A DNA stretch of 41,656 bases from assembly GCA_964347125.1 (NCBI GenBank), contig CAYFXO010000005.1, forward strand, positions 1 through 41,656. Reading direction: 5' to 3'. Made by a program: the position numbers and the translations under genes. Shown here piece by piece: positions 6,674-37,829 of this stretch (its first letter is position 1; each line of letters opens with the position of its first letter). The notes under the pieces are model-generated. The model saw only the letters and a program-made list of their open reading frames with translations, was not told where the DNA came from and ran no database searches. The stretch comes from an uncultured Methanomassiliicoccales archaeon (GTDB taxonomy: Archaea > Thermoplasmatota > Thermoplasmata > RBG-16-68-12 > CAYFXO01).

Positions 6674-6676
6674 TCC

Positions 6677-7147: not shown

Positions 7148-7171
7148 TGCCCGTCAATCCGAGCCTCCACT

Positions 7172-21785: not shown

Positions 21786-21788
21786 CCC

Positions 21789-22145: not shown

Positions 22146-22165
22146 CCCCTCCAGTCTTTTATATT

Positions 22166-22196
22166 CCACAAGGCGTGTACAAATCAGATTAAATAG
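22166..22196 (+). promoter_or_regulatory. Locus-specific promoter/operator, site 1: ACAA-N-GTACAAAT-N4-TTAAATAG
   Basis: GTACAAAT at 22177-22184, then 4 nt, then TATA TTAAATAG at 22189-22196. An upstream ACAA lies at 22168-22171. The same architecture occurs at 23264-23295 and 29194-29225. Confidence 0.6.
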
Positions 22197-22285
22197 TAGG
22201 CGCCACTAACGAGAAGTGCCGAGGGGGTAGGCCCACGAGGTATACCCAGGTCGCCGCGGTCGCATCCCTTTTCGTCGTAGCGGGC

Positions 22286-23221
22286 GTGCTACTCCTTGGC
22301 GCGGCCGCGGCCTACCGGGAGAGCCGGCCGGTGGCGGACATCGGCATGGACAACCAGCTCCAGCTCTTCCTGCGCCTCCAGGTCCCCGTGGACGTCGTGG
22401 AGAGCGGGGACACCCTCCCCTTCGACGTCCTCGTTGAGGACCAGCACGCGAACCCCGTCCCCGGCGCCCACGTCCGAGTGTGGTGGGAGGGCGCCCTGGC
22501 GGTGTCCCCCACGGAGGCGGCGACGGACTCGCAAGGACGGGCCCGGTTCCACCTCACGAGCCCCGACGGCACGGAGGGGCAGTTCCTCCTCCAGTTCGAG
22601 GTGGAATACCCGGAGGCCATCCCCGACGCCGCGACCATGGAATTCCTCATCTTCACCCCGCCCGCCCCGACGCCGGTCTCCCAGGACGTCCAGGTGGTCT
22701 CCGCGGGCCTCGCGATTCTCGGCCTGGCGGCCCTGGCCGGCTCCGAGGCGGGGCGGTACGGGCTCTTCAACGCCCTGGTCTTCCCCCTCTACACCCGCCT
22801 GAAGCGTGAGGAGGTCCTGGACCACTTCGTCCGGGGCCAGATCTACGGCCACATTCTCTCGAACCCCGGGGAGCACTACACCGCGATCCGGGAGCGCCTC
22901 AAGGTCACGAACGGCACCCTCTCCCACCACCTCCGCACGCTGGAGGTCCAAGGCTTCATCCAGTCCCGCCGGGAGGGGACCCGGAAGCGGTTCTACTCCG
23001 TGAACATGGTCCTCCCCCGGGACCGGGGGATCCGCCTGAGCGACCTGCAGCTGGAGATGCTGGAGCGGATCGACGGCGGCGACGGGCCGACGCAGAAGGA
23101 CATCGCGGACGCCGTGGGGACGAGCCAGCAGTCCGTGAGCTACAACCTGCGGGCCCTCCTCCAAGAGGAGAAGGTGCGGGTCGAGCGAGAGGGGCGGAAG
23201 AAGCGCTACTACCCCTCGTAG
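22286..23221 (+). CDS. Membrane-bound transcriptional regulator: extracytoplasmic Ig-like domain, TM helix, two cytoplasmic wHTH domains
   Basis: Ig-like (Big_1-type) segment VLVEDQHANPVPGAHVRV...ATDSQGRARFHLTSPDGTEG. TM helix VVSAGLAILGLAALAGS. wHTH 1: GQIYGHILSNPGEHYTAIRERLKVTNGTLSHHLRTLEVQGFIQSRREGTRKRFY. wHTH 2: PTQKDIADAVGTSQQSVSYNLRALLQEEKVRVEREGRKKRYY. The first canonical start is GTG 22286, but the frame is open from 22193 (see findings). Confidence 0.75.
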   Translation: MLLLGAAAAYRESRPVADIGMDNQLQLFLRLQVPVDVVESGDTLPFDVLVEDQHANPVPGAHVRVWWEGALAVSPTEAATDSQGRARFHLTSPDGTEGQFLLQFEVEYPEAIPDAATMEFLIFTPPAPTPVSQDVQVVSAGLAILGLAALAGSEAGRYGLFNALVFPLYTRLKREEVLDHFVRGQIYGHILSNPGEHYTAIRERLKVTNGTLSHHLRTLEVQGFIQSRREGTRKRFYSVNMVLPRDRGIRLSDLQLEMLERIDGGDGPTQKDIADAVGTSQQSVSYNLRALLQEEKVRVEREGRKKRYYPS

Positions 23222-23263
23222 GGCCCTGGCCTCCCCGGGGCTCACCGCAACCGCCTTATAGTC

Positions 23264-23295
23264 CCACAAACGGGCGTACAAATTTCTTTTTATAG
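23264..23295 (+). promoter_or_regulatory. Locus-specific promoter/operator, site 2
   Basis: ACAA at 23266-23269, GTACAAAT at 23276-23283, 4 nt, then TATA TTTTATAG at 23288-23295. Confidence 0.6.
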
Positions 23296-23416
23296 CATCA
23301 TCCAGTTAGCCGGGGCTCGATGCTCGGGTATCCCCTAGAAGCGCTCCCAGAGCGACCGAGCGTCGGTGCCCTGGGCCGTCCGCGGTCCGCGGCGCCGTGG
23401 GACTAGGAGGAATGGA

Positions 23417-26236
23417 ATGGAATCGAGACGATTCGGTGCGATTGCCATGGTCTCCGTGACCGTGGCGCTCGCCCTCGTGGGTAGCAGCCTTTTCCTGGCC
23501 TACGCGGGCGCGCACAATGTGAGCGGGACACGTCAAGAGTTCGTCTTGCGCATCGGCGCCCAGGACGACATCGAGACGAAGAACATCTTTGGTCACTACC
23601 TCTCGCCTGATGTGTGGACGGCGAACGTGCTGGACCCCCTGTACGACGGGTTCCTGCAGGCGGACCCGGACACGGACCAGCTGCTTCCCTACATCGCGCG
23701 GGGCGTGGACTTCGACGAGAGCGGCACGCTCGAGCGGGACGAAGTCGGCGTCTTCGCGAAGCAGGCGGGATCGGACCAGAGAACGGTCACGATCTACTAC
23801 GACCTGAGCGGCGTCCAGTTCGACGACGGGACCCCGGCCACCGTGGAGGACCTCCTGTTCTCCTTCCACGCGGAAGTGAAGATCCCCACATCCATTAGCA
23901 AGGACGTGATCAAGGACCAGATGGGGCTGGCGGGTTCGAACTACTCCACGACCCGATGGCTCCACCTGTACCGGATGGACAACATGAACATCTGGGAGGA
24001 TGAAGGGACGGGCAATCCCTCCACGAATCCCGCCCGGGTGGCCCTGCAGTTCAAGCTCCAGGGCGACTTCTACAACTTCTACCGGGCGTCCACGAGCGTC
24101 ACCCTGTATCCGCGCTACCTGTGGGAAGGGACCGGCTCCTCGATTACGTGGGACAACCCCGGCTCCCGGTTCCACGGTCAGGTCGTGGACTGCACCCACG
24201 CGGACTGGGGCAACGCGCTGGACACCTCCACCTGGAACGGTGTGCCGGAAGCGGACCCCGCGGCGTGGGACTTGGACAGCGCCTCCCAGTGGACCGTGCC
24301 CGACGGCTGCATGATCGGGACGGGCCCGTACGTGTGGGACCAGTGGATCCCGGGCAGCTTCGCGAAGCTGAACCGGAACCCCCAGTTCTTCTCGACGGTG
24401 GACGGGGCGGGATACGAGTACATCCACGCGCCGTTCCTGGACGGGATGCGCTACCAGATCTACAAGACGGTCCAGGCCGCGGTGTTCGCCCTCCAGGCGA
24501 ACGAGATCGATGTGATCTCGTGGTCCATCCCACCCGACCAAGTGGCGGACCTGCAGAACAACCCGGACATCACCGTGAGCAGCAACGCGGAGAAGGGCTT
24601 CTTCTACCTGGCGTACCACATGCAGATCGCCGGCGGCGCGCCGTGGGCCTATGAGGACGGCGATCCGACGAAGGCGGACATCGGCATCCCCTTCCGCCAG
24701 GCGGTGGCCCACACCATCGACAAGCGGCAGATCGTCACCTCGCTGTTGCAGAACTTCGGCGTCATCGCGGACGGCGTCGTGTCGCCCGTGTCGACGCGGT
24801 GGTACAACTCGTCCCTGCCCCAGTACGACTTCGACCTGGCGCAGGCGGCGGCCATCCTGGACACGTTCTCGACGGACCCGGGAGGCACCTGTCAGCAGGA
24901 CGGGACCGGGTGCCGGAGCTTCGTGGGCATCGGGTCGTCCCTCTTCGACATCCAGTGCCCCCAGGCCGACTACGACCCCATCCGGGCCGCGGCGTGCAGC
25001 ATGATCGAGACCCAGATGCGGGCGGTCGGGATGAACGTGAAGGCGACGCACCTGGCCTTCTCCCAGATCACCCAGAACCTGGACAACCGGGACATGCGCA
25101 TGTGGATCCTCGGGTGGCGCATCGGCAGCGACCCGCCGGACTACCTCCACGCGTTCTTCTACTCGGGGAACTACCCCGACGGGCAGAACTACCCCGGCTA
25201 CGCCAACCCCGTGTTCGACCAGCTGGTGACGGACATCCGCGCGAACCTGGACCCCGACAGCCAGGCGGACCAAGTGAAGTACGCCCAGGGCATCATCTCC
25301 ACGGAGCTCCCGTACGACGTCCTGTACTACCGGACGAACATCGAGGCGTACCGGAACGACCGGACGAGCAACTGGACCGTGGGGGCGGCGGGTTCCATCT
25401 TCGGCGGTTCGTACTGGTCCTGGATCGGCGTGGAGCCGCCGAAGCCGGGATCGCTGCGGGCCACGGTCACCACGGAGACCGCCGTCGCTTCGGGCGGCAC
25501 GATCCCCGTGACGGCCACCGTGCGGGACCCGGACAACAGCCCCTTCGCCAACGCCGACGTGACCCTCCGGGCCACGGGCGGCACCTGGGCCAACCCGGGA
25601 GCCGACCCCCTGACCACCTCCGGAACGACCCTCTCCACGGGCAAGTTCACGGGCAACTACATCGCGCCCACGGTGACGACGAAGCAGAAGGTCTTCATCA
25701 GCGTCTCGGCGAGTGACCCCGGCGGCGTGTTCGGGGACTCCCTGGAGACCTCCGTCGTGGTCACGGTGTTCCCGCCCGGGGTGAGCTTCCTCTCGATTAC
25801 GGCCGACGCGACGAGCACCGTCGCCGAGGTCGGGGACGCCATCCTGATCGACGTGACGGTGCGCGACGAGGCGCGGGTCACCGTCGATACGGCCGACGTC
25901 GCCGTGGCGGTACAGCCGACGGCGAGCCCGGGAGCGACGCCCACCAGCGGGCAGACGGACTCGGCCGGGAGGATTCAGATCTCCTTCCAGGTCGATGACA
26001 TCGGCGGCGTGGAGTCGAAGGACTACCAGTTGACCTTCAACGCCACGAAGGCCGGCTTCGAACCTGCGCCGGGACGGGTCCTGGACCTGACCATCTTCGA
26101 ACCAGAAACTCCTGGTGGAACGGGAGGCGACGGCGGACCGGTGGTCCCCGCCCTTGACATGCTGGCCGTCCTCGCGGTGGTCGGCACCCTGGCGGTGGCC
26201 TACGGCTACGTCCGAGAACGAGGGAAGAGGGAGTAG
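23417..26236 (+). CDS. ABC transporter substrate-binding protein, family 5 (Opp/Dpp-type), with C-terminal Ig-like repeats and a TM anchor (copy 1)
   Basis: ATG at 23417 with GGAGG at 23406-23410 (track start GTG 23366 is possible). Signal/anchor FGAIAMVSVTVALALVGSSLFLAYAG. The SBP_bac_5-like core has GTGPY, FAKLNRNPQFF and NPDITV. The tail has two Big_1-like repeats and the TM helix LDMLAVLAVVGTLAVAYGYV. Confidence 0.85.
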   Translation: MESRRFGAIAMVSVTVALALVGSSLFLAYAGAHNVSGTRQEFVLRIGAQDDIETKNIFGHYLSPDVWTANVLDPLYDGFLQADPDTDQLLPYIARGVDFDESGTLERDEVGVFAKQAGSDQRTVTIYYDLSGVQFDDGTPATVEDLLFSFHAEVKIPTSISKDVIKDQMGLAGSNYSTTRWLHLYRMDNMNIWEDEGTGNPSTNPARVALQFKLQGDFYNFYRASTSVTLYPRYLWEGTGSSITWDNPGSRFHGQVVDCTHADWGNALDTSTWNGVPEADPAAWDLDSASQWTVPDGCMIGTGPYVWDQWIPGSFAKLNRNPQFFSTVDGAGYEYIHAPFLDGMRYQIYKTVQAAVFALQANEIDVISWSIPPDQVADLQNNPDITVSSNAEKGFFYLAYHMQIAGGAPWAYEDGDPTKADIGIPFRQAVAHTIDKRQIVTSLLQNFGVIADGVVSPVSTRWYNSSLPQYDFDLAQAAAILDTFSTDPGGTCQQDGTGCRSFVGIGSSLFDIQCPQADYDPIRAAACSMIETQMRAVGMNVKATHLAFSQITQNLDNRDMRMWILGWRIGSDPPDYLHAFFYSGNYPDGQNYPGYANPVFDQLVTDIRANLDPDSQADQVKYAQGIISTELPYDVLYYRTNIEAYRNDRTSNWTVGAAGSIFGGSYWSWIGVEPPKPGSLRATVTTETAVASGGTIPVTATVRDPDNSPFANADVTLRATGGTWANPGADPLTTSGTTLSTGKFTGNYIAPTVTTKQKVFISVSASDPGGVFGDSLETSVVVTVFPPGVSFLSITADATSTVAEVGDAILIDVTVRDEARVTVDTADVAVAVQPTASPGATPTSGQTDSAGRIQISFQVDDIGGVESKDYQLTFNATKAGFEPAPGRVLDLTIFEPETPGGTGGDGGPVVPALDMLAVLAVVGTLAVAYGYVRERGKRE
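24454..25461. repeat. 1008-bp tract 100% identical to 27343-28350 (copy A)
   Basis: Base-by-base comparison at both borders and at sampled internal lines. The off-frame track ORFs are identical (24649..24888 = 27538..27777; 24651..25004 = 27540..27893). Constant offset of 2889 nt. Confidence 0.9.
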
Positions 26237-26263
26237 GCTCCCTCTCCCCCTCTCAACCTTTTT
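26227..26263 (+). terminator. Stem-loop spanning the stop codon of copy 1, followed by a T5 run (possible partial terminator/attenuator between the two binding-protein genes)
   Basis: GAGGGAG-TAGG-CTCCCTC (26227-26244) is a perfect 7-bp stem. A pyrimidine-rich tail follows, with TTTTT at 26259-26263. Confidence 0.35.
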
Positions 26264-26302
26264 CCCCTCTTTCGGTCATCCAGGGGAAAGGGAGGAGTGG
26301 AC

Positions 26303-29110
26303 ATGGAACCCAGAAGCCCCGCGAGGCGAAGCGTAGCCCTCGTCCTAGCCATAGCCGCCGCGCTGCTGGCCGGGACGGTCTTCGCGACCGCCGCCGCGGC
26401 CTACGATAGGAACGGGACACGTCAGGAGTTCGTCCTGCGCATCGGCGCCCAGGACGACATCGAGACCAAGAACTTCTTCGGGAACGCGCTGTCGCCGGAC
26501 GTGTGGACGGCGAACGTCCTGGGGCCCCTCACGGACGGGGTCCTGCAGGCGGACCCGGACACGGACCAACAGCTGCCCTACGTCGCCCGGGGCGTGGACT
26601 TCGACGAGGACGGCACCTTCGAGCGGGACGAGGTCGGGGTGTTCGGGAAGCAGGCGGGGACGAACCAGCGGGTCGTCACGGTCTACTACGACCTGAACGG
26701 GGCGGAGTTCCACGACGGGACGCAGGCGACGGTGGAGGACCTGATGTTCTCGTACCACGCCACGACGAAGATCCCCACGGTCATCAGCAACGACGTGATC
26801 AAGGACCAGGCGGGCCTCGCGGGGTCGAACTACTCCACGACCCGGTGGCTCCACATCTACAAGTTGGACCCGCTGAACGTGTGGGAGGATGAGGGGACGG
26901 GCTCCCCGTCGGGCGACCCCTACCGCGTGGCCCTCCAGTTCCAGTTGCAGGGCGACTACTACGACTTCTACCGGAGCACGATCTCCGTCGGTCTCCTGCC
27001 GCGGGCCCTCTGGGAAGGGACGGGGGCGAGCATCATCTGGAACAACCCCGGCTCGCGGTTCAACGGACAGACGGTGGACTGCACCCACGCGGACTGGGGT
27101 CAGGTCCTCGACACCTCGATCTGGAACGGCGTGCCGGAGACCGCCCCGAACGCCTGGGACCTGAACGGGGCTGCGGAGTGGACCGTCCCCGACGGCTGCA
27201 TGATCGGGACGGGCCCGTACGTGTGGGACCAGTGGGTCCCGGGGAGCTTCGCGAAGCTGAACCGGAACCCCCAGTTCTTCACCACGGTGGACGCGAGCGG
27301 CTACGAGTACATCCACCCGCCCTTCCTGGACGGGATGCGGTTCCAGATCTACAAGACGGTCCAGGCCGCGGTGTTCGCCCTCCAGGCGAACGAGATCGAT
27401 GTGATCTCGTGGTCCATCCCACCCGACCAAGTGGCGGACCTGCAGAACAACCCGGACATCACCGTGAGCAGCAACGCGGAGAAGGGCTTCTTCTACCTGG
27501 CGTACCACATGCAGATCGCCGGCGGCGCGCCGTGGGCCTATGAGGACGGCGATCCGACGAAGGCGGACATCGGCATCCCCTTCCGCCAGGCGGTGGCCCA
27601 CACCATCGACAAGCGGCAGATCGTCACCTCGCTGTTGCAGAACTTCGGCGTCATCGCGGACGGCGTCGTGTCGCCCGTGTCGACGCGGTGGTACAACTCG
27701 TCCCTGCCCCAGTACGACTTCGACCTGGCGCAGGCGGCGGCCATCCTGGACACGTTCTCGACGGACCCGGGAGGCACCTGTCAGCAGGACGGGACCGGGT
27801 GCCGGAGCTTCGTGGGCATCGGGTCGTCCCTCTTCGACATCCAGTGCCCCCAGGCCGACTACGACCCCATCCGGGCCGCGGCGTGCAGCATGATCGAGAC
27901 CCAGATGCGGGCGGTCGGGATGAACGTGAAGGCGACGCACCTGGCCTTCTCCCAGATCACCCAGAACCTGGACAACCGGGACATGCGCATGTGGATCCTC
28001 GGGTGGCGCATCGGCAGCGACCCGCCGGACTACCTCCACGCGTTCTTCTACTCGGGGAACTACCCCGACGGGCAGAACTACCCCGGCTACGCCAACCCCG
28101 TGTTCGACCAGCTGGTGACGGACATCCGCGCGAACCTGGACCCCGACAGCCAGGCGGACCAAGTGAAGTACGCCCAGGGCATCATCTCCACGGAGCTCCC
28201 GTACGACGTCCTGTACTACCGGACGAACATCGAGGCGTACCGGAACGACCGGACGAGCAACTGGACCGTGGGGGCGGCGGGTTCCATCTTCGGCGGTTCG
28301 TACTGGTCCTGGATCGGCGTGGAGCCGCCGAAGCCGGGATCGCTGCGGGCGACCCTGACGACGGCCTCCGCCGTCGCCTCCGGGGGGAGCGTGTCCGTCT
28401 CGGCGACGGTCCGCAACCCGGACAACGACCCGGTGGCGGGGATGGATGTGACCCTCCGGGCCACGGGAGGCACGTGGCAGAACCCGGACCCGAACGACCC
28501 CAACGGCCTGACGACGAAGGGGACCACCCTGGTGACTGGGAAGTTCACCACGAACTACATCGCGCCCACGGTGACGACGAAGCAGAAGGTCCCCATCACC
28601 GTCCAGGCGAAGGACCCGAACGGGATCTTCGGCGAATCCCTCGAGACCTCCCTCATCCTCACCGTATTCCCCGCGGGGGTGGACTTCCTCTCGGTGAGCG
28701 TGGACCCCACGAGCGACCTGACCGTGGAAGGGGACCCCGTCCTCATCACGGTCACCGTGCGGGACCAGGACCAGATCCCCGTGGGCGCTTCCGACGTCGC
28801 CGTGACGGTGCAGCCCACGGCCAGCCCGGGCGCCAGCCCCACGACGGGGCCGACGGACGCCTCGGGGCTGATCCAGGTGACCTTCCAGGTGGATGACATC
28901 GGCGGCGTCCCGTCCAAGGCCTTCGAACTCACCTTCAACGCCACGAAGGCGGGCTACGCGGAGGCGCCGGGCCGCATCCTGGAGGTGAACGTCCTTGAGC
29001 TGGAGGAGACGCCGCCCCCGCCGGACGGCATCCCCGCCCTGGAGATCGCCGTCGTGGTCATGGCCATCCTCGCGGTGGCGGTCATCGTGCGTTGGCGGCA
29101 GCGCTGGTAG
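26303..29110 (+). CDS. ABC transporter substrate-binding protein, family 5, with C-terminal Ig-like repeats and a TM anchor (copy 2)
   Basis: ATG at 26303 with GGAGG at 26291-26295 (track start GTG 26297). Same architecture as copy 1. C-terminal anchor is IPALEIAVVVMAILAVAVIVRW. Confidence 0.85.
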   Translation: MEPRSPARRSVALVLAIAAALLAGTVFATAAAAYDRNGTRQEFVLRIGAQDDIETKNFFGNALSPDVWTANVLGPLTDGVLQADPDTDQQLPYVARGVDFDEDGTFERDEVGVFGKQAGTNQRVVTVYYDLNGAEFHDGTQATVEDLMFSYHATTKIPTVISNDVIKDQAGLAGSNYSTTRWLHIYKLDPLNVWEDEGTGSPSGDPYRVALQFQLQGDYYDFYRSTISVGLLPRALWEGTGASIIWNNPGSRFNGQTVDCTHADWGQVLDTSIWNGVPETAPNAWDLNGAAEWTVPDGCMIGTGPYVWDQWVPGSFAKLNRNPQFFTTVDASGYEYIHPPFLDGMRFQIYKTVQAAVFALQANEIDVISWSIPPDQVADLQNNPDITVSSNAEKGFFYLAYHMQIAGGAPWAYEDGDPTKADIGIPFRQAVAHTIDKRQIVTSLLQNFGVIADGVVSPVSTRWYNSSLPQYDFDLAQAAAILDTFSTDPGGTCQQDGTGCRSFVGIGSSLFDIQCPQADYDPIRAAACSMIETQMRAVGMNVKATHLAFSQITQNLDNRDMRMWILGWRIGSDPPDYLHAFFYSGNYPDGQNYPGYANPVFDQLVTDIRANLDPDSQADQVKYAQGIISTELPYDVLYYRTNIEAYRNDRTSNWTVGAAGSIFGGSYWSWIGVEPPKPGSLRATLTTASAVASGGSVSVSATVRNPDNDPVAGMDVTLRATGGTWQNPDPNDPNGLTTKGTTLVTGKFTTNYIAPTVTTKQKVPITVQAKDPNGIFGESLETSLILTVFPAGVDFLSVSVDPTSDLTVEGDPVLITVTVRDQDQIPVGASDVAVTVQPTASPGASPTTGPTDASGLIQVTFQVDDIGGVPSKAFELTFNATKAGYAEAPGRILEVNVLELEETPPPPDGIPALEIAVVVMAILAVAVIVRWRQRW
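27343..28350. repeat. 1008-bp tract 100% identical to 24454-25461 (copy B)
   Basis: See copy A. Confidence 0.9.
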
Positions 29111-29193
29111 GCCGGCCGCGCCCGCGACCGGGCAGCGGCGCCGAGACGCCCCGCCGGAGAGGTCGAAGCAGAGGCCGAACCCATGGAGAAAAA

Positions 29194-29225
29194 CGACAAT
29201 CGGGTGTACAAATGACGTTAAATAG
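29194..29225 (+). promoter_or_regulatory. Locus-specific promoter/operator, site 3
   Basis: ACAA at 29196-29199, GTACAAAT at 29206-29213, 4 nt, then TATA TTAAATAG at 29218-29225. ATG 29259 is preceded by GGGGAGG. Confidence 0.6.
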
Positions 29226-29258
29226 GGCAGGGATTATGAGAACGGGGAGGCGGGCCCC

Positions 29259-30956
29259 ATGAGGATTTGGAGGTACCTGGCCAGGCGTGCCATCCAAACC
29301 GTCATCACCCTGATCGTGGTCGTCATCCTGCTCTTCGTCATCTTCCGCCTGATGCCCGGCGACCCGACGCGGTTCTTCATCCAGCCCGGGCAGACCCAGG
29401 AGAACATCGACCGCCTCTGCATCCAGTTCGGGCTCTGCAAGGCCGTCCCCGCGCAGGGCACGGACTACGAGTCGGCGTTCAACACGAACGACCTGGGGGC
29501 CTACGAGATCGTCATCACCGTGAGGGACAGGAGGGACAACGTGGGGACGTTCTACGCCGCCCATACGCGGGAGCCCGGCTTCCCCCCGGGCGCCCTGGGC
29601 ATCGTCAACATCTCCGCCTCCCCGTACCACATCGTCAACGTCACGGACGCGGTGGTGCTGAACGCGGAGCCCCGGGTGCCGGGCGGCGGACCGTTCAACC
29701 TGTGGGCGGTGATCGAGTATCCCGACAGCTCGATGGACAACGTCACCCTCGCCCCCACTGGCTCGGTATACTACCAGGCCACCTTCACCCCCGACCAGGC
29801 GGGGGTCTACCGCATCACGTTGGGCATCCAGGCCGCCGGCTCCATCGAACGCGCCCCCTTCACCGTCGCGGCCAACGACCTCCCGGCGGACTTGGACCCA
29901 TTCCTCCTTCAGGACGACCACGTCTACATCGAGCGGGTTCTGACGGGGACGCAGGTCGTGGACCCGTTCCGGAACCGGGTCCATGTGAGCGTCGTCTCCA
30001 CCGCGGCGGGGGGCGGCCTCGGCTCCATCCAGAACGTCACGGCGACCATCACGTCCCACACGTGGGACACCCAGGGGGACGGGGGACAGGGGGCCTACGG
30101 GGCGTTCTCCGTGGTCGTCGAGAACCTCCCCTTGATTCACGTGGACGAGGTCGTGCGTACGACGGCGTGGGAGCAGTTCGTCCCCTACTTGCAGTCCATG
30201 CTGACGTTCGACTTCGGGAACTCCTTCTTCAGCCGGCAGCCGGTCATCGACGAAATCTCCCAGCGGATCCCCCCGACCCTCCTGTTGTTCGGCAGCGCCC
30301 TCATCCTCTCCACCTTCATCGGGGTCGCCCTGGGCGTCCTCCTGGCGTGGTACCGGGGGACGAAGTTTGAGATGAGCGCCATCGTGGTGTCCCTCTTCTT
30401 CTACTCCATGCCCCTGTTCTGGTTCGGCCTCATCCTGCTGTGGGCCTTCGGCTTCCGCCTGGGCTGGTTCCCCCTCGGCGGCATGATCACGCCGGGGCTA
30501 TGGGAAGGGGGCCCCCCGGACATCGGCACCCAGATCCTCGACATCGGCCGCCACCTGGTGCTGCCCCTCGCCACCCTGATGATCCTGGGGCTCGCGGGGA
30601 CGATCCTCCTCATGCGGAACTCCATGCTAGAGGTCCTGGGGGAGGACTACATCACCACCGCGAAGGCGAAAGGGCTCTCGGAGCGGCAGGTCATGTACCG
30701 CCACGCGGCGCGAAACGCCCTCCTCCCCGTCACGACGGCGGTGGCCATCGCCGCCGGAGGGGTCATCAGCGGGGGCGTCCTCACGGAGACGATCTTCTCC
30801 TGGCCCGGGATGGGCTTCTACCTGGTCAACCGCACCCTGCGCCAGGACTACCCCGCCATCCAGGCCACCTTCTACATCCTGGCCATCCTGACCATCATCG
30901 CGAACTGGGTCGCCGACATGCTGTACGCCGTGCTGGACCCCCGGGTGAGGTTGTAG
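29259..30956 (+). CDS. ABC transporter permease (DppB/OppB-type) with a ~240-aa extracytoplasmic insertion
   Basis: N-terminus MRIWRYLARRAIQTVITLIVVVILLFVIFRLMPGDP is the canonical DppB head. The C-terminal core has the EAA-like loop ITTAKAKGLSERQVMYRHAARNALLP. 565 aa, versus ~310-340 for typical family members. Confidence 0.9.
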   Translation: MRIWRYLARRAIQTVITLIVVVILLFVIFRLMPGDPTRFFIQPGQTQENIDRLCIQFGLCKAVPAQGTDYESAFNTNDLGAYEIVITVRDRRDNVGTFYAAHTREPGFPPGALGIVNISASPYHIVNVTDAVVLNAEPRVPGGGPFNLWAVIEYPDSSMDNVTLAPTGSVYYQATFTPDQAGVYRITLGIQAAGSIERAPFTVAANDLPADLDPFLLQDDHVYIERVLTGTQVVDPFRNRVHVSVVSTAAGGGLGSIQNVTATITSHTWDTQGDGGQGAYGAFSVVVENLPLIHVDEVVRTTAWEQFVPYLQSMLTFDFGNSFFSRQPVIDEISQRIPPTLLLFGSALILSTFIGVALGVLLAWYRGTKFEMSAIVVSLFFYSMPLFWFGLILLWAFGFRLGWFPLGGMITPGLWEGGPPDIGTQILDIGRHLVLPLATLMILGLAGTILLMRNSMLEVLGEDYITTAKAKGLSERQVMYRHAARNALLPVTTAVAIAAGGVISGGVLTETIFSWPGMGFYLVNRTLRQDYPAIQATFYILAILTIIANWVADMLYAVLDPRVRL

Positions 30957-30957
30957 G

Positions 30958-33900
30958 ATGGCGGGGCGCAGCAAGTGGAAGGAGCGCTACCGGGCGTACG
31001 CGAAGGTCTTCAAGCAGAACTGGGAGCTCTACAAAGCGAGCCGCATCGGGCTCGTGGGCATCGCCATCATCATCTTCTTCCTCCTCATGGCCCTCTCTGC
31101 CCCGTACCTAGGCTTGCGTGACCCCATTGGGTGGTTCGCCCCCGACGAGGACATTATCGCGGTGGACCAGTACCACCCCCCAGGCATCGATACGGGAGTG
31201 CCCCCCTACAACGTCCGCACCACCCCTATCACCGAAGAGATCACCTTCCGCCTCCGACCGAAGTCGGAGGAGCCTCGTACGGACCGTGTCTATGTCACCA
31301 CGGACGACCACATCTACGCCATCCGTCCCATCACGGGCATCCAGAACTGGCTCTTCCCCGGTAATTTCACCGCCGACGGGACGATCACGACCCCCGTCGT
31401 GGTGATCAACTTCGGCCACCACACGGAGCCGGACAAGGCCGACTTCGTCCTGTACTTCGGCACGGAACAGGGCACCCTCTACGCCCTGAACGACTCGAAC
31501 ACCCAGATCGGGAACGTCCCCGTGGGGCAGAACGCCTTCTCCGTCGCCTTGGACGGGAGCCCCGTGGAGTCTGTGGCGGCCTACTCCTTGGACATTGAGG
31601 CGGGGCGGCGGGGGAGCGTCCGCATCGAACAGGACAACACTCCTGACTTGGATGGCGTCGACACTCCCTTTGCTGTCGACCTAGGCGGGTCCTTCCAGAT
31701 CTACTATTCCGGCAACAACTCGGAGGAGGACAGGTGGGGCATTCTGAGCCTGAGTTCCCGGGACGGGTTGAGATTCGTGCGTGGCGGCTCGAAGGGAGCA
31801 AACGATGTGTTCAGTACCCCGAGCCTCTGGGATGGGGAGGGGGAGATGGATCCGTACGTCTTCCAGGATTCGCTCGGTAGCTGGCTGATGTACTACGTTG
31901 GATTCGATGGTTCGGCGTACCGCATTCTCCGGGCCACATCCCCGGATAGGCTCGACTGGACGAAAGCCGCTACCCCCGTCCTATCGTCCTCACGGCCCGA
32001 GGACGCCGCAGGCATGCGCCGCCCCTGGCTCGTCCGCGAGCCCGGGCTCTGGACCCTGCTGTATGCCGGATATGACGGGACGATGTGGAGACTCCTTAGC
32101 GCGACATCAACGGATGACGGGGCGAATTGGTCCGGCCCCTCGGTCGTCCTGGATGACGCCCGCCACCCGACGGTCTACGAACCGGAACCGGGTTCTGGGA
32201 ACTACACAATGGTCTATACGGCCAACGTCTCCGGCGCGCCCCGCCTCTTCGAGACCACCTCGATGGACCCGGGGGTTTGGTCTCCCGGCGTCGAGATCGT
32301 GGGTCCGGGAGACGCCCTTCGCCTCGTGGACACGGGTCACCCAATCTTCGACCCCCTCAGTCTGGAGGCCCAGATCTCTCAAGGGGCCCAGAGCCCGATG
32401 GTGCTTCCCCTGGAGGACGGGAGTTTCCGCATGTACTACGTCTCCCCCTACTTCGAGCAGCGGGCAGGGGGAGAGGACATGGCCGCCATCGTGACCCAGA
32501 CCTCCCCAGACGGTCTCATGTGGATTCGCGAGCACAAGGACCTCTACGTGGCGACCACGCAAGCGGGCTGGGTGTATGCATTCTCCGCGGTAGACAACCA
32601 ACTCCTGTGGCAACGGAAGATCAGCGACCTACCCACCCGGGTGTCCGGCACCCCCCTCATCCCCGCGAATGACCCCACCTACTCCTCGGCCTTCGACCGG
32701 GACGGCGCCATCGTCGTGGTGGGGACCCAAGACGGGGAGATTCATGGGCTCCGGACGAGGGACGGCGTGCTCGCCTGGGAGGACCCCTTCCACCTGGGCC
32801 TGCCCGAAGGAGGGACCTGGTGGACGCCCCCTGTCGTAGCGGAGCAGTCCGCCATACCCATCGCGAACGGGACAGACTTCACCGACGTGGCGTACGCAGC
32901 TTCCAGCGATGGATGGCTATACGCGGTCTTCGTCAAGGACGGGCAGCTGATCCCCCATTGGAAGGACTCCGCATCGGGGTGGGAGCGAGAGATCGGCATC
33001 CCCGTCCGGGATGCGGGAGGGGACCTCGACTTGGGGAACCTGTCCGCCCCATCCGTGCGCGGGACCACCCTCTACGTAGGGTCGTCCACGGGGCGAGCCT
33101 ACGCCCTCTACCGTGACAATGTGGGCCTCACCATCAAGGCGGGAGACACGAAATGGGAATTCGGAGACGAGGCCCTCCGGGACAAGAACGCCACGTTCGC
33201 CATCCGTCCCACGAACTGGAACCCGCTAGACTTGGTCTTCTTCGTCGCGAACCACGACAACGGGACCGAGAACGACCCCACGGACGACCGGTCCGCGGTG
33301 TACAGCATCGCCTTGGACGGCGAAATCTCGTGGAAACAGAACTTCGAGGGCCACGTCGCCGGGCCTGTCATCGTCTGGCGCTCTGAGGAGCCCGTGTCGG
33401 GCACCCAGGGGCAGCTCCAGCCCGCCGTCTGGTTCGGGACGGACCACGGCATCGTATACGCGTACTCCGCGGCGGGGAAGGTCATCGCACCACTTCCGCC
33501 CACCTGGCTCCGCCCGGTGCAGAGTGGCAACGTCTACTGGCTCGGGACGGACGATCGGGGGCGGGACCTGTTCAGCCAGCTCATGTACGGCGCGCAGATC
33601 GCCCTCATCGTCGGCTTCCTGGCGGCCTTCTTCTCGATCTCCATCGGCGTCATCATCGGCCTCGTGGCCGGCTACTCCGGCGGGCGGGTGGAGTCCATCC
33701 TCATGCGGTTCACCGACGTCATCCTCGTCCTGCCCGGCCTCCCGTTGGTCATCATCCTGGCCGCCGTCCTCGGCGCGAACATCTGGAACATCATCTTCGT
33801 CATCGCCATCGTCGGGTGGCCCGGGGTCGCCCGCGTCATCCGCGCCGAGGTCCTCTCCCTCAAGGAGCGGCCCTTCATCGATTCCGCCCGGGTCACGGGC

Positions 33901-34206
33901 GCGAGCAACATCCGGATCATGTTCCGGCACGTGGCCCCGAACATCCTCCCCCTCGCGTTCCTGTACATGACCTTCGCGGTGAGCGGGGCCATCCTCACGG
34001 AGGCGGCCCTGAGCTTCATCGGGCTCGGGGACGTGAACACCCCCTCCTGGGGCCAGATGCTGGAGGCCATCCAGCGGGCCAATGTGTTGGGGTCGTGGTG
34101 GTGGCTCCTTCCACCGGGGCTGGGCATCACGTTCCTGTCCCTGGCCTTCTACCTCGTCGGGCGCGGCTACGAGCAGATCGTCAACCCGCGGCTGAGGGCA
34201 CGGTGA
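30958..34206 (+). CDS. ABC transporter permease (DppC/OppC-type) with a ~805-aa extracytoplasmic beta-propeller insertion
   Basis: OppC-type N-terminal helix RIGLVGIAIIIFFLLMALSAPYLGLRDP. The canonical continuation NVYWLGTDDRGRDLFSQLMYGAQIAL appears only ~800 aa later. The permease core has SARVTGASNIRIMFRHVAPN. 1082 aa, versus ~280-300 typical. Confidence 0.9.
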   Translation: MAGRSKWKERYRAYAKVFKQNWELYKASRIGLVGIAIIIFFLLMALSAPYLGLRDPIGWFAPDEDIIAVDQYHPPGIDTGVPPYNVRTTPITEEITFRLRPKSEEPRTDRVYVTTDDHIYAIRPITGIQNWLFPGNFTADGTITTPVVVINFGHHTEPDKADFVLYFGTEQGTLYALNDSNTQIGNVPVGQNAFSVALDGSPVESVAAYSLDIEAGRRGSVRIEQDNTPDLDGVDTPFAVDLGGSFQIYYSGNNSEEDRWGILSLSSRDGLRFVRGGSKGANDVFSTPSLWDGEGEMDPYVFQDSLGSWLMYYVGFDGSAYRILRATSPDRLDWTKAATPVLSSSRPEDAAGMRRPWLVREPGLWTLLYAGYDGTMWRLLSATSTDDGANWSGPSVVLDDARHPTVYEPEPGSGNYTMVYTANVSGAPRLFETTSMDPGVWSPGVEIVGPGDALRLVDTGHPIFDPLSLEAQISQGAQSPMVLPLEDGSFRMYYVSPYFEQRAGGEDMAAIVTQTSPDGLMWIREHKDLYVATTQAGWVYAFSAVDNQLLWQRKISDLPTRVSGTPLIPANDPTYSSAFDRDGAIVVVGTQDGEIHGLRTRDGVLAWEDPFHLGLPEGGTWWTPPVVAEQSAIPIANGTDFTDVAYAASSDGWLYAVFVKDGQLIPHWKDSASGWEREIGIPVRDAGGDLDLGNLSAPSVRGTTLYVGSSTGRAYALYRDNVGLTIKAGDTKWEFGDEALRDKNATFAIRPTNWNPLDLVFFVANHDNGTENDPTDDRSAVYSIALDGEISWKQNFEGHVAGPVIVWRSEEPVSGTQGQLQPAVWFGTDHGIVYAYSAAGKVIAPLPPTWLRPVQSGNVYWLGTDDRGRDLFSQLMYGAQIALIVGFLAAFFSISIGVIIGLVAGYSGGRVESILMRFTDVILVLPGLPLVIILAAVLGANIWNIIFVIAIVGWPGVARVIRAEVLSLKERPFIDSARVTGASNIRIMFRHVAPNILPLAFLYMTFAVSGAILTEAALSFIGLGDVNTPSWGQMLEAIQRANVLGSWWWLLPPGLGITFLSLAFYLVGRGYEQIVNPRLRAR

Positions 34207-35510
34207 GTCCCGTGGCCATGCTGGATGTGAGGAACCTGAAGACGTACTTCCGCATCCTCAAGGGGAGCGTGAAGGCCGTGGACGGGGTGACCTTCACCCT
34301 GGACCGGGGGGAGACCATGGGCCTCGTGGGCGAGTCGGGGTGCGGGAAGACGACGACGGCGTTCGCCATCACCCGCCTCCTGCCCTCGAATGGGGACATC
34401 GTCGGCGGGGAGATCCGCTTCAACGACGTCGTCATCGGCCGGGCGGACCTGGCCACGGAGGTCAACGAGATCCTCAAGCAGGGGGACTGGCAGCGGCAGG
34501 TGCAGAAGGCCCTCGCCCGGAGCCAGGCCCGCCTCGAGGCGATGCAGGCCCTGGACGAGGAGGAGGACGTCGAGGCGGAGGTGATGGACACCGAGGACGT
34601 CCGGGAGCGGGAGGCCCGGGTCCTGGGGCTCCTGATGGAGGCCATGGCGACGGCGACGGAGGAGGATGGGGAGTCCCTGCGCCTCCGGCTCCAGCGCCTG
34701 GTGGACAAGGAGATCCGGTCGTGGTCGGGCCGCCGCCGCAAGAAGCGGATGGAGCGGGAGATCGAGGACCGAATGACGAACATCCGCTGGGACGAGATCT
34801 CCATGATCTTCCAGGGCGCCATGAACGCCTTCAATCCCGTCTACAAGGTGGGGGACCAGATCATGGAGGCGCTCCTCACCCACGAGGACATCTCGAAGGA
34901 GGACGCCCGGAAGCGGGTCGCGGAGCTCTTCGACCTCGTGGGGCTGGACGAGGCCCGCATCGAGGGGTACCCCCACGAGTTCAGCGGGGGCATGCGGCAG
35001 CGCGCCATCATCGCGATGTCCCTGGCCCTGACGCCCCAGCTCATCATCGCGGACGAGCCCACCACCGCCCTGGACGTGATCATGCAGGACCGCATCCTCG
35101 CGGAGATCCGGGACATCCAGCGGCGGATGGGGATGGCCATGATGATCATCACCCATGACATCTCCGTCGTGGCGGAGGTGGCGGAGAAGATCGCCATCAT
35201 GTACGCCGGGAAACTCGTGGAGATCGGCGGCATTGAGGAGGTGTTCGGCCGTCCCGCGAACCCCTACACCATCGGCCTCATGGCCGCCTTCCCCAGCATC
35301 AAGGGGGAGCGGGAGCGCCTCCAGGCCATCCCCGGCTCCCCGCCGGACCTGGCGAACCCGCCGTCCGGGTGCCGGTTTCACCCCCGCTGCCGCTACGCCA
35401 AGGACATCTGCAAGGTGGAGGAACCCGACCTTCTGGAGGTGCGGGAGAACCACCTGGCCGCGTGCCACTTCGCCAAGGAGATCTTTGCGGGGGAACTGGG
35501 GGAGACGTAG
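34203..35510 (+). CDS. ABC transporter ATP-binding protein (OppD/DppD-type) with a ~105-aa charged helical insertion
   Basis: GTG 34203 overlaps the permease stop (GTGA); GTG 34212 and ATG 34218 are alternatives. Walker A GESGCGKTT, signature FSGGMRQR, Walker B LIIADEPTTALD. The C-terminal oligopeptide-ATPase domain has NPYT ... GCRFHPRC. Confidence 0.9.
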   Translation: MSPVAMLDVRNLKTYFRILKGSVKAVDGVTFTLDRGETMGLVGESGCGKTTTAFAITRLLPSNGDIVGGEIRFNDVVIGRADLATEVNEILKQGDWQRQVQKALARSQARLEAMQALDEEEDVEAEVMDTEDVREREARVLGLLMEAMATATEEDGESLRLRLQRLVDKEIRSWSGRRRKKRMEREIEDRMTNIRWDEISMIFQGAMNAFNPVYKVGDQIMEALLTHEDISKEDARKRVAELFDLVGLDEARIEGYPHEFSGGMRQRAIIAMSLALTPQLIIADEPTTALDVIMQDRILAEIRDIQRRMGMAMMIITHDISVVAEVAEKIAIMYAGKLVEIGGIEEVFGRPANPYTIGLMAAFPSIKGERERLQAIPGSPPDLANPPSGCRFHPRCRYAKDICKVEEPDLLEVRENHLAACHFAKEIFAGELGET

Positions 35511-36716
35511 TTGGAAGCCGAGCTGCAGGCCCTGGGCGAGATCGAGCCTCCCTCCGCGGAGGTCGTCTGGGAGGTCGACAACCTAGTGAAGTGGTTCTCC
35601 GTGAGGGCGGGGTTCCTCAGCGCCATCATGGGGAAGGAGCTGTTTGTCCACGCCGTGGACGGGGTGAGCTTCGACATCCACAAGGGGGAGATCCTGGGCG
35701 TCGTGGGGGAGTCCGGGTGCGGGAAGACCACCACGGGTCGGCTCCTGGTCCGGCTGGAGACCCCCACCTCGGGGAAGATGGTCTTCGACGGGGAGGACAT
35801 CGGCGGCCTGAAGGGACGGGCCCTGAAGGACTTCCGACGGAACGTCCAGATGGTGTTCCAGGACCCCTACGAGAGCCTGAACCCGCGGTTCAACGTGTAC
35901 AACACGGTGGCGGAGCCCCTCGTCGTCCACCATGTGGGGGAGACCATCGAGGAGCAGGAGGAGATGGTCATCCAGGCCCTGGAGAACGCGGAGCTGAAGC
36001 CGGCGGACGACTTCATGTACCGCTACCCCCACGAACTCAGCGGGGGCCAACGGCAGCGCGTCGCCGTGGCCCGCGCCCTGGTCCTCCGACCCAAGTTCAT
36101 CGTGGCCGACGAGCCGGTGTCCATGCTGGACGTCTCCATCCGGGCGGGGATCATGAACCTCATGCTCCTCCTGCGGCAGCAGTACGAGATCCCCTTCATG
36201 TTCATCTCCCACGACGTCTCCGTGACCCGGTACATGAGCCACCGGATCGCGGTGATGTACCTGGGGAACATCGTGGAGCTTGCGCCCTCGGAGAAGGTCA
36301 TCAAGGACCCGAAGCACCCCTACACGGAGGCCCTCCTCTCCGCGGTGCCCGTGCCCGACCCCACGGCGAAACACGGGCGTGTCCAAATCCGCGGGGAGCT
36401 GCCGAGCCCCATCCACCTCCCCACCGGGTGCGCGTTCCACCCCCGCTGCCTCTACAGGCGGGAGATCTGCGAGGTCGTGAAGCCCGAGCTGAGGGAGGTG
36501 GAACCCGGCCACTGGGTCCAGTGCCACTTCGCCGAAGACCTGGACCTCCAGAGCCCCGACGACGTGGACGTCCGGGAGATCGGGTTCTGCGAGAAGTGTC
36601 GGGAGCCGGTGCTGAAGAGCATGCTCTCCGAAGTGTGTGAGTGCCCCAACAAGATCTACCATGAGGAGTGCGCCATCGAGCTGGCCCAGTGCCCCATCTG
36701 CCAGAAGACGTTCTAG
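35511..36716 (+). CDS. ABC transporter ATP-binding protein (OppF/DppF-type) with a C-terminal Cys/His zinc-binding extension
   Basis: TTG start directly after the TAG of the previous gene. Walker A GESGCGKTT, signature LSGGQRQR, Walker B FIVADEPVSMLD, then HPYT ... GCAFHPRC. A ~55-aa extension ends in CEKC..CEC..HEEC..CPIC. Confidence 0.88.
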   Translation: MEAELQALGEIEPPSAEVVWEVDNLVKWFSVRAGFLSAIMGKELFVHAVDGVSFDIHKGEILGVVGESGCGKTTTGRLLVRLETPTSGKMVFDGEDIGGLKGRALKDFRRNVQMVFQDPYESLNPRFNVYNTVAEPLVVHHVGETIEEQEEMVIQALENAELKPADDFMYRYPHELSGGQRQRVAVARALVLRPKFIVADEPVSMLDVSIRAGIMNLMLLLRQQYEIPFMFISHDVSVTRYMSHRIAVMYLGNIVELAPSEKVIKDPKHPYTEALLSAVPVPDPTAKHGRVQIRGELPSPIHLPTGCAFHPRCLYRREICEVVKPELREVEPGHWVQCHFAEDLDLQSPDDVDVREIGFCEKCREPVLKSMLSEVCECPNKIYHEECAIELAQCPICQKTF

Positions 36717-36724
36717 GTGATGGG

Positions 36725-37303
36725 ATGAACAAGCGGGCCGCTGCCCTGGCCGTCACGTTCCTCGTCGTGGGCGTCACCGCGGGCTTCTTCATGTACCGCA
36801 CGGCCACCAACTACGACGCCGCCACCGAGGCCATCCTCACCCTCAGCCCGAGCATGGTCCAGGTGGAGGAGGTGCGGATCCCGCCCATCACGTCGATGCA
36901 GGAGACCATCTCCGTGGAGGTGGCGTTCAACGTGACGAACCCCACCCGCCAGGCCATCCTCGTGTGGCCCATCTCCTTCAAGCTGTACAACGACGACGTG
37001 ACGGACCAGCGGCCCTTCCTCCACAAACTCCAGGACCGGCTCGTGAACCTGGGGATCGCCACGGCTCCCGAGGCGCCCTACCGGCTGGAGCCCGGGATCT
37101 CCGTCACCATGGAGGGGACGGTCCTCGTGGGGGGCATCGTGGGGCACATCGACGTGCTGAACGTCACGGACCCAGACGGGAACTACCACCCGTTCATCAC
37201 GGCCTCCATGCTCGCGGAGCTCGCCGACACCGGCATCAAGCGGGACATCGAGGGCATCCTGTACGTCTCGGGGCCGGAGGGGGTGCCGCCGTATGAGGGG
37301 TGA
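36725..37303 (+). CDS. Membrane-anchored beta-sandwich protein (possibly LEA_2/WHy-like), function unknown
   Basis: ATG 36725 (the track ORF starts earlier at 36668). TM helix AAALAVTFLVVGVTAGFFMY. ISVEVAFNVTNPTRQAILVWPISFKLYNDD resembles the LEA_2 NPN-type strand motif. Weak call. Confidence 0.6.
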   Translation: MNKRAAALAVTFLVVGVTAGFFMYRTATNYDAATEAILTLSPSMVQVEEVRIPPITSMQETISVEVAFNVTNPTRQAILVWPISFKLYNDDVTDQRPFLHKLQDRLVNLGIATAPEAPYRLEPGISVTMEGTVLVGGIVGHIDVLNVTDPDGNYHPFITASMLAELADTGIKRDIEGILYVSGPEGVPPYEG

Positions 37304-37829
37304 GTCCTGGAAGCTCTACCTGGGCGGCCTGCTCTGGGCGGGGGTGGGGGCGGTGGTCATCGCCTTCGTGTTCACGTCCGCGTTCATGCGGACCTTCACC
37401 CCGATTCCCATGGACGCCTTCAACGCCGTCGTCATCGGCCCCCTCTTCGTCGGCTTCGTGGTGGGGGCGCTCCTGACGGAGGCGGACATCCGCGGCATCG
37501 CCTACGCGGCCATCCTCACCGCGATCCTGTCCATGGCCCTCATCTACGTCATGATGTTCATCCCCATGATTACGGGGACCGCGACGAACATGCTCCAGCT
37601 CCCCATGACAGACTTCGAGCGCCAGGCGATCATCCTGTCCAGCGTCTTCCTCATCCCCCTGACCATCATGGGGACCATCCTCGGGAAGGCCTTCGGGGAG
37701 ATGGCCCTGCCCTCCGACGAAGAGGTGGAGCGTCGGCGCCTGATCCTGCGGGAGACGCGGGAGTGGCACGCCCTCCTCCGGGGCACGCCCCCCGGGAAGC
37801 GGGGCCGGCCCCGGGACGAGGAGGAGTAG
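37293..37829 (+). CDS. Integral membrane protein (4 predicted TM helices) with a charged C-terminal tail, function unknown
   Basis: Overlaps the previous gene by 11 nt. Hydrophobic segments LGGLLWAGVGAVVIAFVF, AVVIGPLFVGFVVGALL, AAILTAILSMALIYVMMFIPMI and AIILSSVFLIPLTIMGTIL. Confidence 0.7.
   Translation: MRGESWKLYLGGLLWAGVGAVVIAFVFTSAFMRTFTPIPMDAFNAVVIGPLFVGFVVGALLTEADIRGIAYAAILTAILSMALIYVMMFIPMITGTATNMLQLPMTDFERQAIILSSVFLIPLTIMGTILGKAFGEMALPSDEEVERRRLILRETREWHALLRGTPPGKRGRPRDEEE

Follow-up and report, generated by a model that had tools for sequence, protein, structure and literature searches.

An Opp/Dpp-type ABC importer locus of Thermoplasmata with large predicted ectodomains in both permeases

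The window analysed here, a 41,656-nt stretch of contig CAYFXO010000005.1 from an uncultured Methanomassiliicoccales archaeon (assembly GCA_964347125.1), carries an ATP-binding cassette (ABC) importer locus at 22.2–37.8 kb. Nine plus-strand genes with high GC content at third codon positions (GC3) encode a regulator, two substrate-binding proteins (SBPs), two permeases, two ATPases, and two small membrane proteins (Table 1). By sequence comparison, the core subunits are homologous to DppA, DppB, DppC, DppD, and DppF. We read the locus, with a probability of about 0.5, as a Thermoplasmata-type Opp/Dpp importer (PepT family, TC 3.A.1.5, type I) whose permease ectodomains would dock tethered SBPs beneath a variable head.

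An original prediction, made from the DNA letters, had described a family-5 importer with an extra module on every component. Pfam assignments and Foldseek matches to DppB and DppC bear out the family-5 core, and all eight listed features are present at about the positions assigned to them. These include a regulator with an immunoglobulin (Ig)-like ectodomain and two winged helix-turn-helix (wHTH) domains, two ~935-aa binding proteins, each with two Big_1-like repeats and a C-terminal transmembrane (TM) anchor, a ~240-aa β-sandwich insert in permease 1, and a ~105-aa highly charged insert between Walker A and the Q-loop of ATPase 1. A C-terminal C4HC3 zinc-type module on ATPase 2, two further membrane proteins coupled at the 3′ end, and three promoters sharing a motif unique in the window complete the set, together with the permease 2 insert described below.

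The genes would form three transcription units: the regulator alone, SBP1-SBP2, and permease 1-permease 2-ATPase 1-ATPase 2-m1-m2. Intergenic gaps from permease 1 to m1 measure, in order, 1, 11, 0, and 8 nt, and the m1 and m2 genes overlap by 11 nt. A tRNA-Val gene on the opposite strand marks the 3′ boundary. The window has a GC content of ~67%, and the archaeal ABCE1/RLI protein encoded in it finds its best matches in Thermoplasmata metagenome-assembled genomes (MAGs) at 60–66% identity, which places the source among the Thermoplasmata, without a near relative in the set of species-representative genomes.

Table 1. Features of the importer locus in window coordinates
Feature	Position	Strand	Basis
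Candidate promoter/operator 1, CACAAGGCGTGTACAAAT + 4 nt + TTAAATAG	22167..22196	+	5′ of regulator gene; same motif 5′ of regulator genes in L088, L170
Membrane-bound transcription regulator: Ig-like (Big_1-type) ectodomain, TM, two cytoplasmic wHTH	22286..23221	+	Pfam, TM scan
Candidate promoter/operator 2, CACAAACGGGCGTACAAAT + 4 nt + TTTTATAG	23265..23295	+	5′ of SBP1; kept 5′ of SBP genes in L003, L089, L170, L088
SBP1, 939 aa: N-terminal TM/signal, family-5 SBP, two Big_1-like Ig, C-terminal TM anchor	23417..26236	+	Pfam, TM scan
SBP2, 937 aa: SBP1 paralogue, without its own promoter motif	26297..29110	+	SBP_bac_5 140.7 bits
Candidate promoter/operator 3, GACAATCGGGTGTACAAAT + 4 nt + TTAAATAG	29195..29225	+	5′ of permease 1; near-identical in L002, L086
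Permease 1, 565 aa, DppB/OppB-like: tandem Ig-like domains at residues ~60–300 (nt ~29436–30158)	29259..30956	+	Pfam, AlphaFold2, Foldseek
Permease 2, 1082 aa, DppC/OppC-like: TM1, ~800-aa ectodomain, membrane core 851–1082	30958..34206	+	Pfam, AlphaFold2, Foldseek
Outer PQQ/BamB-like propeller, N-terminal blades, residues 90–213	31225..31596	+	pLDDT mostly 73–95; aligned in all propeller-bearing homologues
Predicted nested five-repeat GH130/GH32-like propeller, residues 214–527	31597..32538	+	Absent from 766-aa forms; profile matches; low AlphaFold2 confidence
Outer PQQ/BamB-like propeller, C-terminal blades, residues 528–850	32539..33507	+	PQQ_2 at 530–720; pLDDT 80–97
ATPase 1, 430 aa, OppD/DppD-like: ~105-aa charged insert (nt 34452–34766), Walker A to Q-loop	34218..35510	+	Split alignment to M. 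tuberculosis OppD 8j5q_D
ATPase 2, 401 aa, OppF/DppF-like: C-terminal eight-ligand Cys/His module (nt ~36588–36713)	35511..36716	+	ABC_tran 117.9 bits, oligo_HPY 74.6 bits
m1, 192 aa: one N-terminal TM, ~165-aa ectodomain	36725..37303	+	Orthologue in 7/7 loci
m2, 178 aa: four TM, charged cytoplasmic tail	37293..37829	+	TM scan, alignment of seven orthologues

Conservation of the operon and integrity of the inserts

The architecture is real and, in the literature searched (in which subscription journals are thinly covered), undescribed, yet it is widespread within its lineage. The predicted novelty thus stands in that no description was found, and is tempered by the breadth of the trait, with permease 1 and its Ig insert present in more than 120 sequence clusters. 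Public records name these proteins only as "peptide/nickel transport system permease" or "ABC transporter permease", and genome studies of Thermoplasmatota list the genes simply as Opp/Dpp systems (PMC6461988).

The same operon, whose conservation elsewhere the original prediction had put forward as a check, lies on at least seven related contigs from Thermoplasmata archaea and metagenomes. It is conserved as a whole in L002, L003, L086, L087, L089, and L170, and an eight-gene operon recurs in Thermoplasmata and "Geothermarchaeales" genomes. The homologue P0001 (1083 aa) is 65% identical to permease 2 and colinear with all of its 1082 residues, and the P0001 contig encodes proteins of 560, 1083, 428, 401, 191, and 183 aa in the same order. 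Four further loci (L003, L004, L005, and L089) each encode a regulator, an SBP of ~940–965 aa, a permease 1 of ~546–549 aa, a propeller-bearing permease 2 of 756–766 aa, an ATPase 1 of 422–424 aa, an ATPase 2 of 346–351 aa, and two small proteins. A metagenome scan added ~45 further propeller-bearing loci.

This conservation bears on the possibility, raised with the original prediction, that assembly errors or frameshifts joined separate genes to produce the inserts, which we regard as extremely improbable; the extra modules are genuine, folded, and conserved. Colinear full-length homologues at 43–66% identity occur on many independent contigs, and the independent contig JABAOH010183432.1 (L172) is 99.9% identical to positions 33358–35296, spanning the junctions at 33525, 34452, and 34770; all ORFs of the locus are uninterrupted. 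Nothing speaks for such fusions; the single anomaly is a 1008-bp stretch of perfect identity between SBP1 (24454–25461) and SBP2 (27343–28350), flanked by sequence that is 70–86% identical. This identity reflects either recent gene conversion or an assembly collapse inside the SBP genes, and the two proteins thus differ only in the N-terminal lobe and the Ig stalk. At its positions 1939–1942, L172 repeats ~34 nt of ATPase 1 relative to window positions 35263–35296, either a small tandem duplication or an assembly glitch.

Ectodomains of the binding proteins and permeases

SBP1 contains a family-5 domain (SBP_bac_5, 136 bits against a cut-off of 32.4), weak Big_1 matches, and TM segments at residues 10–28 and 910–928. 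SBP2 shares this organization, with two Big_1-like repeats following the SBP domain and TM segments at both termini. Its nearest solved relatives are AppA, a Thermus peptide-binding protein, and DppA. Overall, the 19 solved relatives of the binding protein are annotated as peptide, haem, or antimicrobial-peptide binders or carry generic names, with no annotated sugar binder among them (0/19). The NCBIfam Opp, Dpp, and Nik equivalogs match below threshold, none reaching its cut-off.

Permease 1, modelled by AlphaFold2 with a predicted local distance difference test (pLDDT) score of 88, comprises TM1, two short helices (residues 37–40 and 47–56), an all-β part (60–300), and a DppB-like core, with Pfam placing BPD_transp_1_N at residues 4–71 and BPD_transp_1 at 355–564. 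The top Foldseek match is E. coli DppB (8z1v_A, 38% identity), the M. tuberculosis counterpart is also matched, and the β part matches two-domain Ig chains, including Fab heavy chains and filamin 14–15. In E. coli DppB, residues 32–62 after TM1 form a scoop motif that enters the DppA cleft (PMC12136057). Because the Ig insert directly follows the scoop-like helices equivalent to this motif, it lies beside the expected SBP docking element, a placement that suggests a role at the docking site rather than at a distance. The insert is conserved in length and position across more than 120 sequence clusters (43–52% identity) from Thermoplasmata, "Methanobacteriota", RBG_16_68_12, and Geothermarchaeales MAGs, all under generic names. 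When genomes were scanned with the permease 1 alignment, membrane-domain motifs drove the matches, which were mostly ordinary DppB genes, and no usable family count resulted.

Permease 2 matches OppC_N, PQQ_2 (38.3 bits against a cut-off of 27.6), and BPD_transp_1 (97.9 bits) in Pfam, and its core finds DppC (8z1w_B, 41% identity) as top Foldseek match, with the M. tuberculosis counterpart also matched. The outer propeller is modelled confidently as a single propeller (pLDDT mostly 73–97) and matches BamB (4imm_A), double-propeller proteins, and designed 8- and 10-blade propellers. It resembles BamB/PQQ-like propellers both in Foldseek and in its PQQ_2 match above cut-off, but is built into the TM1-TM2 loop of an ABC permease and split by the nested domain, with no sign of PQQ enzyme function. 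In an exhaustive profile-free search with permease 2, ~15–20 representative clusters share the propeller and core; a genome scan with permease 2 gave nothing beyond a bacterial match to the membrane domain.

Alignment shows that residues ~214–527 are missing from 766-aa homologues. The predicted ~805-aa insert with a propeller inside a propeller is upheld for the outer propeller; the nested part is called a propeller from five sequence repeats and profile matches, its model having a pLDDT of 24–60. A four-sequence profile of the nested domain matches the glycoside hydrolase family 130 (GH130) structure 9fj8 (1.2e-9) and further GH130 structures, 1uyp (2e-7; GH32 is also matched), PLL lectins (~1e-6), GH43, and GH117; the GH130 assignment comes from sequence profiles. 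A homologue search with the nested domain alone gave no matches.

The residues defining GH130 are, in Uhgb_MP numbering, the proton donor D104, R150 of the +1 subsite, and the phosphate-binding R168 and H231 (PMC7660257). In permease 2, D298 (GEMDPYVF) aligns with the EDPR Asp of 9fj8 at the proton-donor position, which is acidic in all four nested variants (D, D, D, E). The R150 position is not conserved, being occupied by E, S, F, or I, and the R168 position carries Ala or Gly, with the H231 region unaligned. The window protein has no PF04041 (Glyco_hydro_130) match, and BNR_2 (16 bits) and GH32N (15.5 bits) both fall below cut-off. Since neither the phosphate-binding Arg nor the +1-subsite Lys/Arg is conserved and no glycoside-hydrolase Pfam model reaches cut-off, a phosphorylase is unlikely; the acidic donor residue in 4/4 variants would suit a catalytic or sugar-binding role, and the nested domain is possibly a hydrolase or a lectin-like binder. 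Compared with GH130 β-mannoside phosphorylases and hydrolases (9fj8, 7fip), the nested domain is thus alike in its five-blade-type repeats, profile similarity, and acidic donor position, but it sits inside another propeller in a permease loop, and related loci, of which one is syntenic, have a Kelch or other propeller in its place.

This swapping identifies the nested propeller, as judged from aligned homologues, as an optional, exchangeable cassette. The loop at permease 2 residues ~215–530 holds a GH130/GH32-like propeller in the window, P0001, P0002, and P0136, a Kelch propeller in P0135 and P0137, a seven-repeat "AYYD" domain in P0140 and six metagenome loci, and only 10–25 residues in the 747–831-aa forms. 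The insertion point is identical in P0135, P0137, P0136, and P0140. Downstream Metallophos, YjeF_N/Carb_kinase, MFS, and Peptidase_M54 genes are common to the Kelch-bearing L086 and to L002, and YjeF_N/Carb_kinase also occurs in the window, so that the L086 locus looks orthologous. GC3 falls from 0.93–0.99 in neighbouring genes and 0.97 in the membrane core to 0.86–0.90 in the outer propeller and 0.79 in the nested part, a dip suggesting later acquisition of the ectodomain parts.

Large inserts are common in related OppC-type permeases. Most of the best 150 matches carry inserts of at least 200 aa, with PKD, CARDB, propeller, and acidic-repeat types represented, and the next-best matches are mostly 480–860 aa long with other inserts (PKD, CARDB) or no Pfam match. 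The OppC-type P0007 (1148 aa) bears an extremely acidic, repeat-like TM1-TM2 insert of ~870 aa that is unrelated to the propeller, and P0156 carries a BNR-type domain at a different insertion point. In the near-complete genome CP070767.1 (L088, 11697–12767), a 357-aa Kelch-only ORF follows permease 1, with no membrane core or ATPases after it; the ORF may belong to an operon copy that has decayed or been rearranged.

Cytoplasmic modules, accessory proteins, and regulator

The ATPase 1 insert corresponds to residues 80–184, which are extra relative to M. tuberculosis OppD, and is 44% charged and devoid of proline; its place and length are conserved in six loci. Mollicute OppD and OppF models (NCBIfam NF043079 and NF043078; 561 and 649 positions) match the window ATPase in two pieces, and their model coordinates suggest that the Walker A to Q-loop segment is interrupted by an insert in Mollicute Opp ATPases as well. 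These inserts exceed that of ATPase 1 in length and have no detectable sequence relationship to it.

Both ATPases contain ABC_tran, oligo_HPY (74.5 and 74.6 bits), and a C-x5-C-x6-C-x17-C motif. The [4Fe-4S] ligands of E. coli DppD (Cys284/290/297/315) and DppF share this spacing (PMC12136057), and the motif is a predicted [4Fe-4S] signature. The C-terminal module of ATPase 2 follows the pattern C-x2-C...C-x-C...H-x2-C...C-x2-C, its eight ligands being kept in at least 17 loci (among them L002, L086, L087, L170, and 12 metagenome loci); its RING-type match is not significant (Pfam zf-RING_5, 11 bits, E 0.41). In L188, L195, L201, and L215, His replaces one Cys (YH-x-EH-A in place of YH-x2-C-A), still giving eight ligands.

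Each of the eight loci with a nested domain has the zinc-type module, as do the non-nested L196 and L202; it is absent from other non-nested loci. A functional link between the module and the nested domain, which held in the first five loci (5/5), is weakened by L196 and L202, and the co-occurrence looks like shared ancestry rather than a strict functional link.

The accessory proteins m1 and m2 have no Pfam or NCBIfam match, and the pair is present in 7/7 loci. The m2 tail (LPSDEE...R..L..eTreWH; window 37680–37829) is long and conserved in five loci that have the ATPase 2 zinc-type module and short in L003 and L089, both without it. The tail and the module may interact with each other, or shared ancestry may account for the pattern.

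The regulator matches HTH_HVO_0163_N (PF24266; 50.8 bits against a cut-off of 31) and MarR_2 (44.2 bits), and its TM segment connects these to an ectodomain with a weak Big_1 match (29.1 bits, below cut-off) and similarity to SBP1's second Big_1 domain (E 1e-4). It is co-encoded in every complete locus. No description of the function of HVO_0163-type regulators was found in the literature searched. An in-frame hydrophobic N-terminal segment (VAAVASLFVVAG...) lies upstream of the first ATG, GTG, or TTG (22200–22290). Because relatives of the regulator begin with such a signal-like segment, the annotated start is probably too late; the true start probably lies near 22235, where an ACG is preceded by the Shine-Dalgarno-like GAGGGGGT, suggesting that either the start is non-canonical or a base is wrong.

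The window contains exactly three copies of the shared promoter motif GTACAAAT (22177, 23276, and 29206) against 0.06 expected by chance, each copy lying 4 nt upstream of a TATA-like box. The full element, (C/G)ACAA-N7/8-GTACAAAT followed by 4 nt and the TATA-like box, can also be written ACAA-N8-TACAAAT. It is found 5′ of SBP, regulator, or permease 1 genes in L002, L086, L170, L003, L089, and L088, and is conserved in seven loci of very different GC content. The element is probably the operator of the co-encoded regulator, a candidate pairing suggested by its two ACAA half-sites and the two wHTH domains. The regulator would bind this direct-repeat operator, controlling its own gene and the operon.

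Substrate, docking platform, and competing explanations

Relative to the solved peptide importers (E. coli DppABCDF and OppBCDF, M. tuberculosis OppABCD and DppABCD), the window locus retains the family-5 SBP, DppB- and DppC-like permeases (38–41% identity, TM-score 0.75 to the targets), two oligo_HPY ATPases, the four-Cys [4Fe-4S] signature, and scoop-like helices after TM1 of the B subunit. Unlike in them, its SBPs are extended by ~400 aa and carry an Ig stalk and, at the C terminus, a membrane anchor; the locus also has a ~240-aa Ig insert in the B subunit, a ~800-aa double-propeller insert in the C subunit, a ~105-aa insert in the D-type ATPase, and a zinc-type tail on the F-type ATPase, along with two added membrane subunits and a dedicated membrane-bound regulator.

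In function, the permease 1 insert finds its best analogue in the P2 loop of MalF in E. coli MalFGK2-MalE, a folded, Ig-like extracytoplasmic domain of a type I permease that contacts the binding protein. MalF P2 differs in belonging to another permease family and loop, and is a single ~180-aa domain without a propeller or nested cassette, in a transporter with one decorated permease.

The evidence leans towards a peptide rather than a glycan substrate. Besides the peptide-binding relatives of the SBP, a 1747-aa Peptidase_S8 (subtilase) is encoded upstream of the importer locus (8628–13871, minus strand), and in L003 a 2016-aa S8 peptidase and another SBP lie directly 3′ of the operon; Thermoplasmatota genome reconstructions likewise pair extracellular peptidases with Opp/Dpp systems (PMC6461988). 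In the proposed mechanism, two SBPs tethered on two-Ig stalks would capture substrate, most likely oligopeptides freed by giant surface subtilases. The permease 1 Ig domains and the permease 2 propeller would form a tall extracellular platform that would dock and retain the stalked SBPs above the translocation pore. The nested propeller would act as a head that binds partners or works like a lectin, and it would be suited to the niche and not to transport chemistry, and the ATPase 1 helical insert, the ATPase 2 zinc-type module, and m1/m2 would be regulatory or assembly parts.

Several points weigh against this docking model. The role of the ectodomains is argued from position only, and the nested domain is modelled too uncertainly for fold comparison, while the acidic donor residue in its variants would suit a sugar-active domain. 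No Asp of the binding protein aligns with the DppA Asp that contacts the peptide amino group, and sugar transport is known for archaeal Opp-like systems. Part of the promoter motif may be a lineage-specific B recognition element (BRE).

A tentative extension, possible though well short of even odds, makes the permease 2 ectodomain a modular receptor, in which a constant PQQ-like propeller would carry an exchangeable head (GH130-like, Kelch, or "AYYD") for a macromolecule or surface and would be coupled to import and, through the regulator, to transcription. If so, the head might target a glycoprotein, a detrital particle, or another cell, and such a "receptor-permease" class is undescribed for any ABC importer.

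The great variety of inserts in OppC-type permeases fits adaptation to the envelope better than a shared transport step, PQQ/BamB-like propellers such as BamB serve as scaffolds, and m1 has an ectodomain too. On these grounds the ectodomains could be mainly structural, acting as spacers or anchors in the S-layer or glycocalyx or as stabilisers of the complex with m1 and m2, with the nested propeller contacting species-specific envelope components and no part of the ectodomains engaging substrate or SBP. We consider this doubtful, because the permease 1 Ig insert keeps the same length and position in more than 120 clusters and adjoins the SBP docking element. A chiefly sensory system, a "trigger transporter" pair in which the regulator's Ig ectodomain would read the occupancy or conformation of the permease ectodomains and set expression, appears improbable. 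It would account for a membrane-bound regulator that is co-encoded in every complete locus and whose gene bears the operator, for the common Ig type of the regulator ectodomain and SBP stalk, and for the extra cytoplasmic modules on the ATPases; it sits poorly with a locus that has every importer part as well as two binding proteins, and the operator's restriction to the operon's own promoters in the window points to self-regulated uptake.

The original prediction had favoured a membrane complex that binds or processes an extracellular polymer, possibly a glycan. On this reading the nested GH130-like propeller would be an active glycosidase or a glycan-specific lectin feeding oligosaccharides to the SBPs and pore. 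Kelch propellers of related loci could bind sugars too, and the nested profile matches GH130 mannoside phosphorylases, GH32, GH43, GH117, and propeller lectins. Four divergent variants keep an acidic residue at the GH130 proton-donor position, and GH130 hydrolases would fit an extracellular site better than phosphorylases (PMC7660257). Of the GH130 residues, however, this one alone is kept, many genomes run the same operon without a nested domain, and the solved SBP relatives include no sugar binders, the nearest being peptide binders. The neighbour-gene domain tables of the loci examined list no glycoside-hydrolase or sugar-catabolic genes. This claim has accordingly fared poorly, and we judge it unlikely.

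In the solved type I importers compared, only short permease loops face the SBP, the known exception being MalF P2. Because Ig domains and a ~800-aa double propeller occupy those loops here, together with two added subunits, the accepted picture of SBP docking and hand-over may not hold for this family. The swappable nested propeller offers a clear natural case of cassette exchange in a membrane-protein loop, and the conserved operator offers a direct way into the regulon. Sediments and soils harbour abundant Thermoplasmatota, which genome reconstructions credit with protein degradation partly through "Opp/Dpp" genes, so that the substrate of the importer and the role of its head bear on how these archaea feed.

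Other genes flank the locus. A 2037-aa protein without a clear family is encoded upstream at 1044–7157 (minus strand). A CBS-pair protein gene (20791–21330) precedes genes for a V4R-domain protein and a Roadblock/LC7 protein at 21378–22145 (plus strand), which adjoin the regulator promoter.

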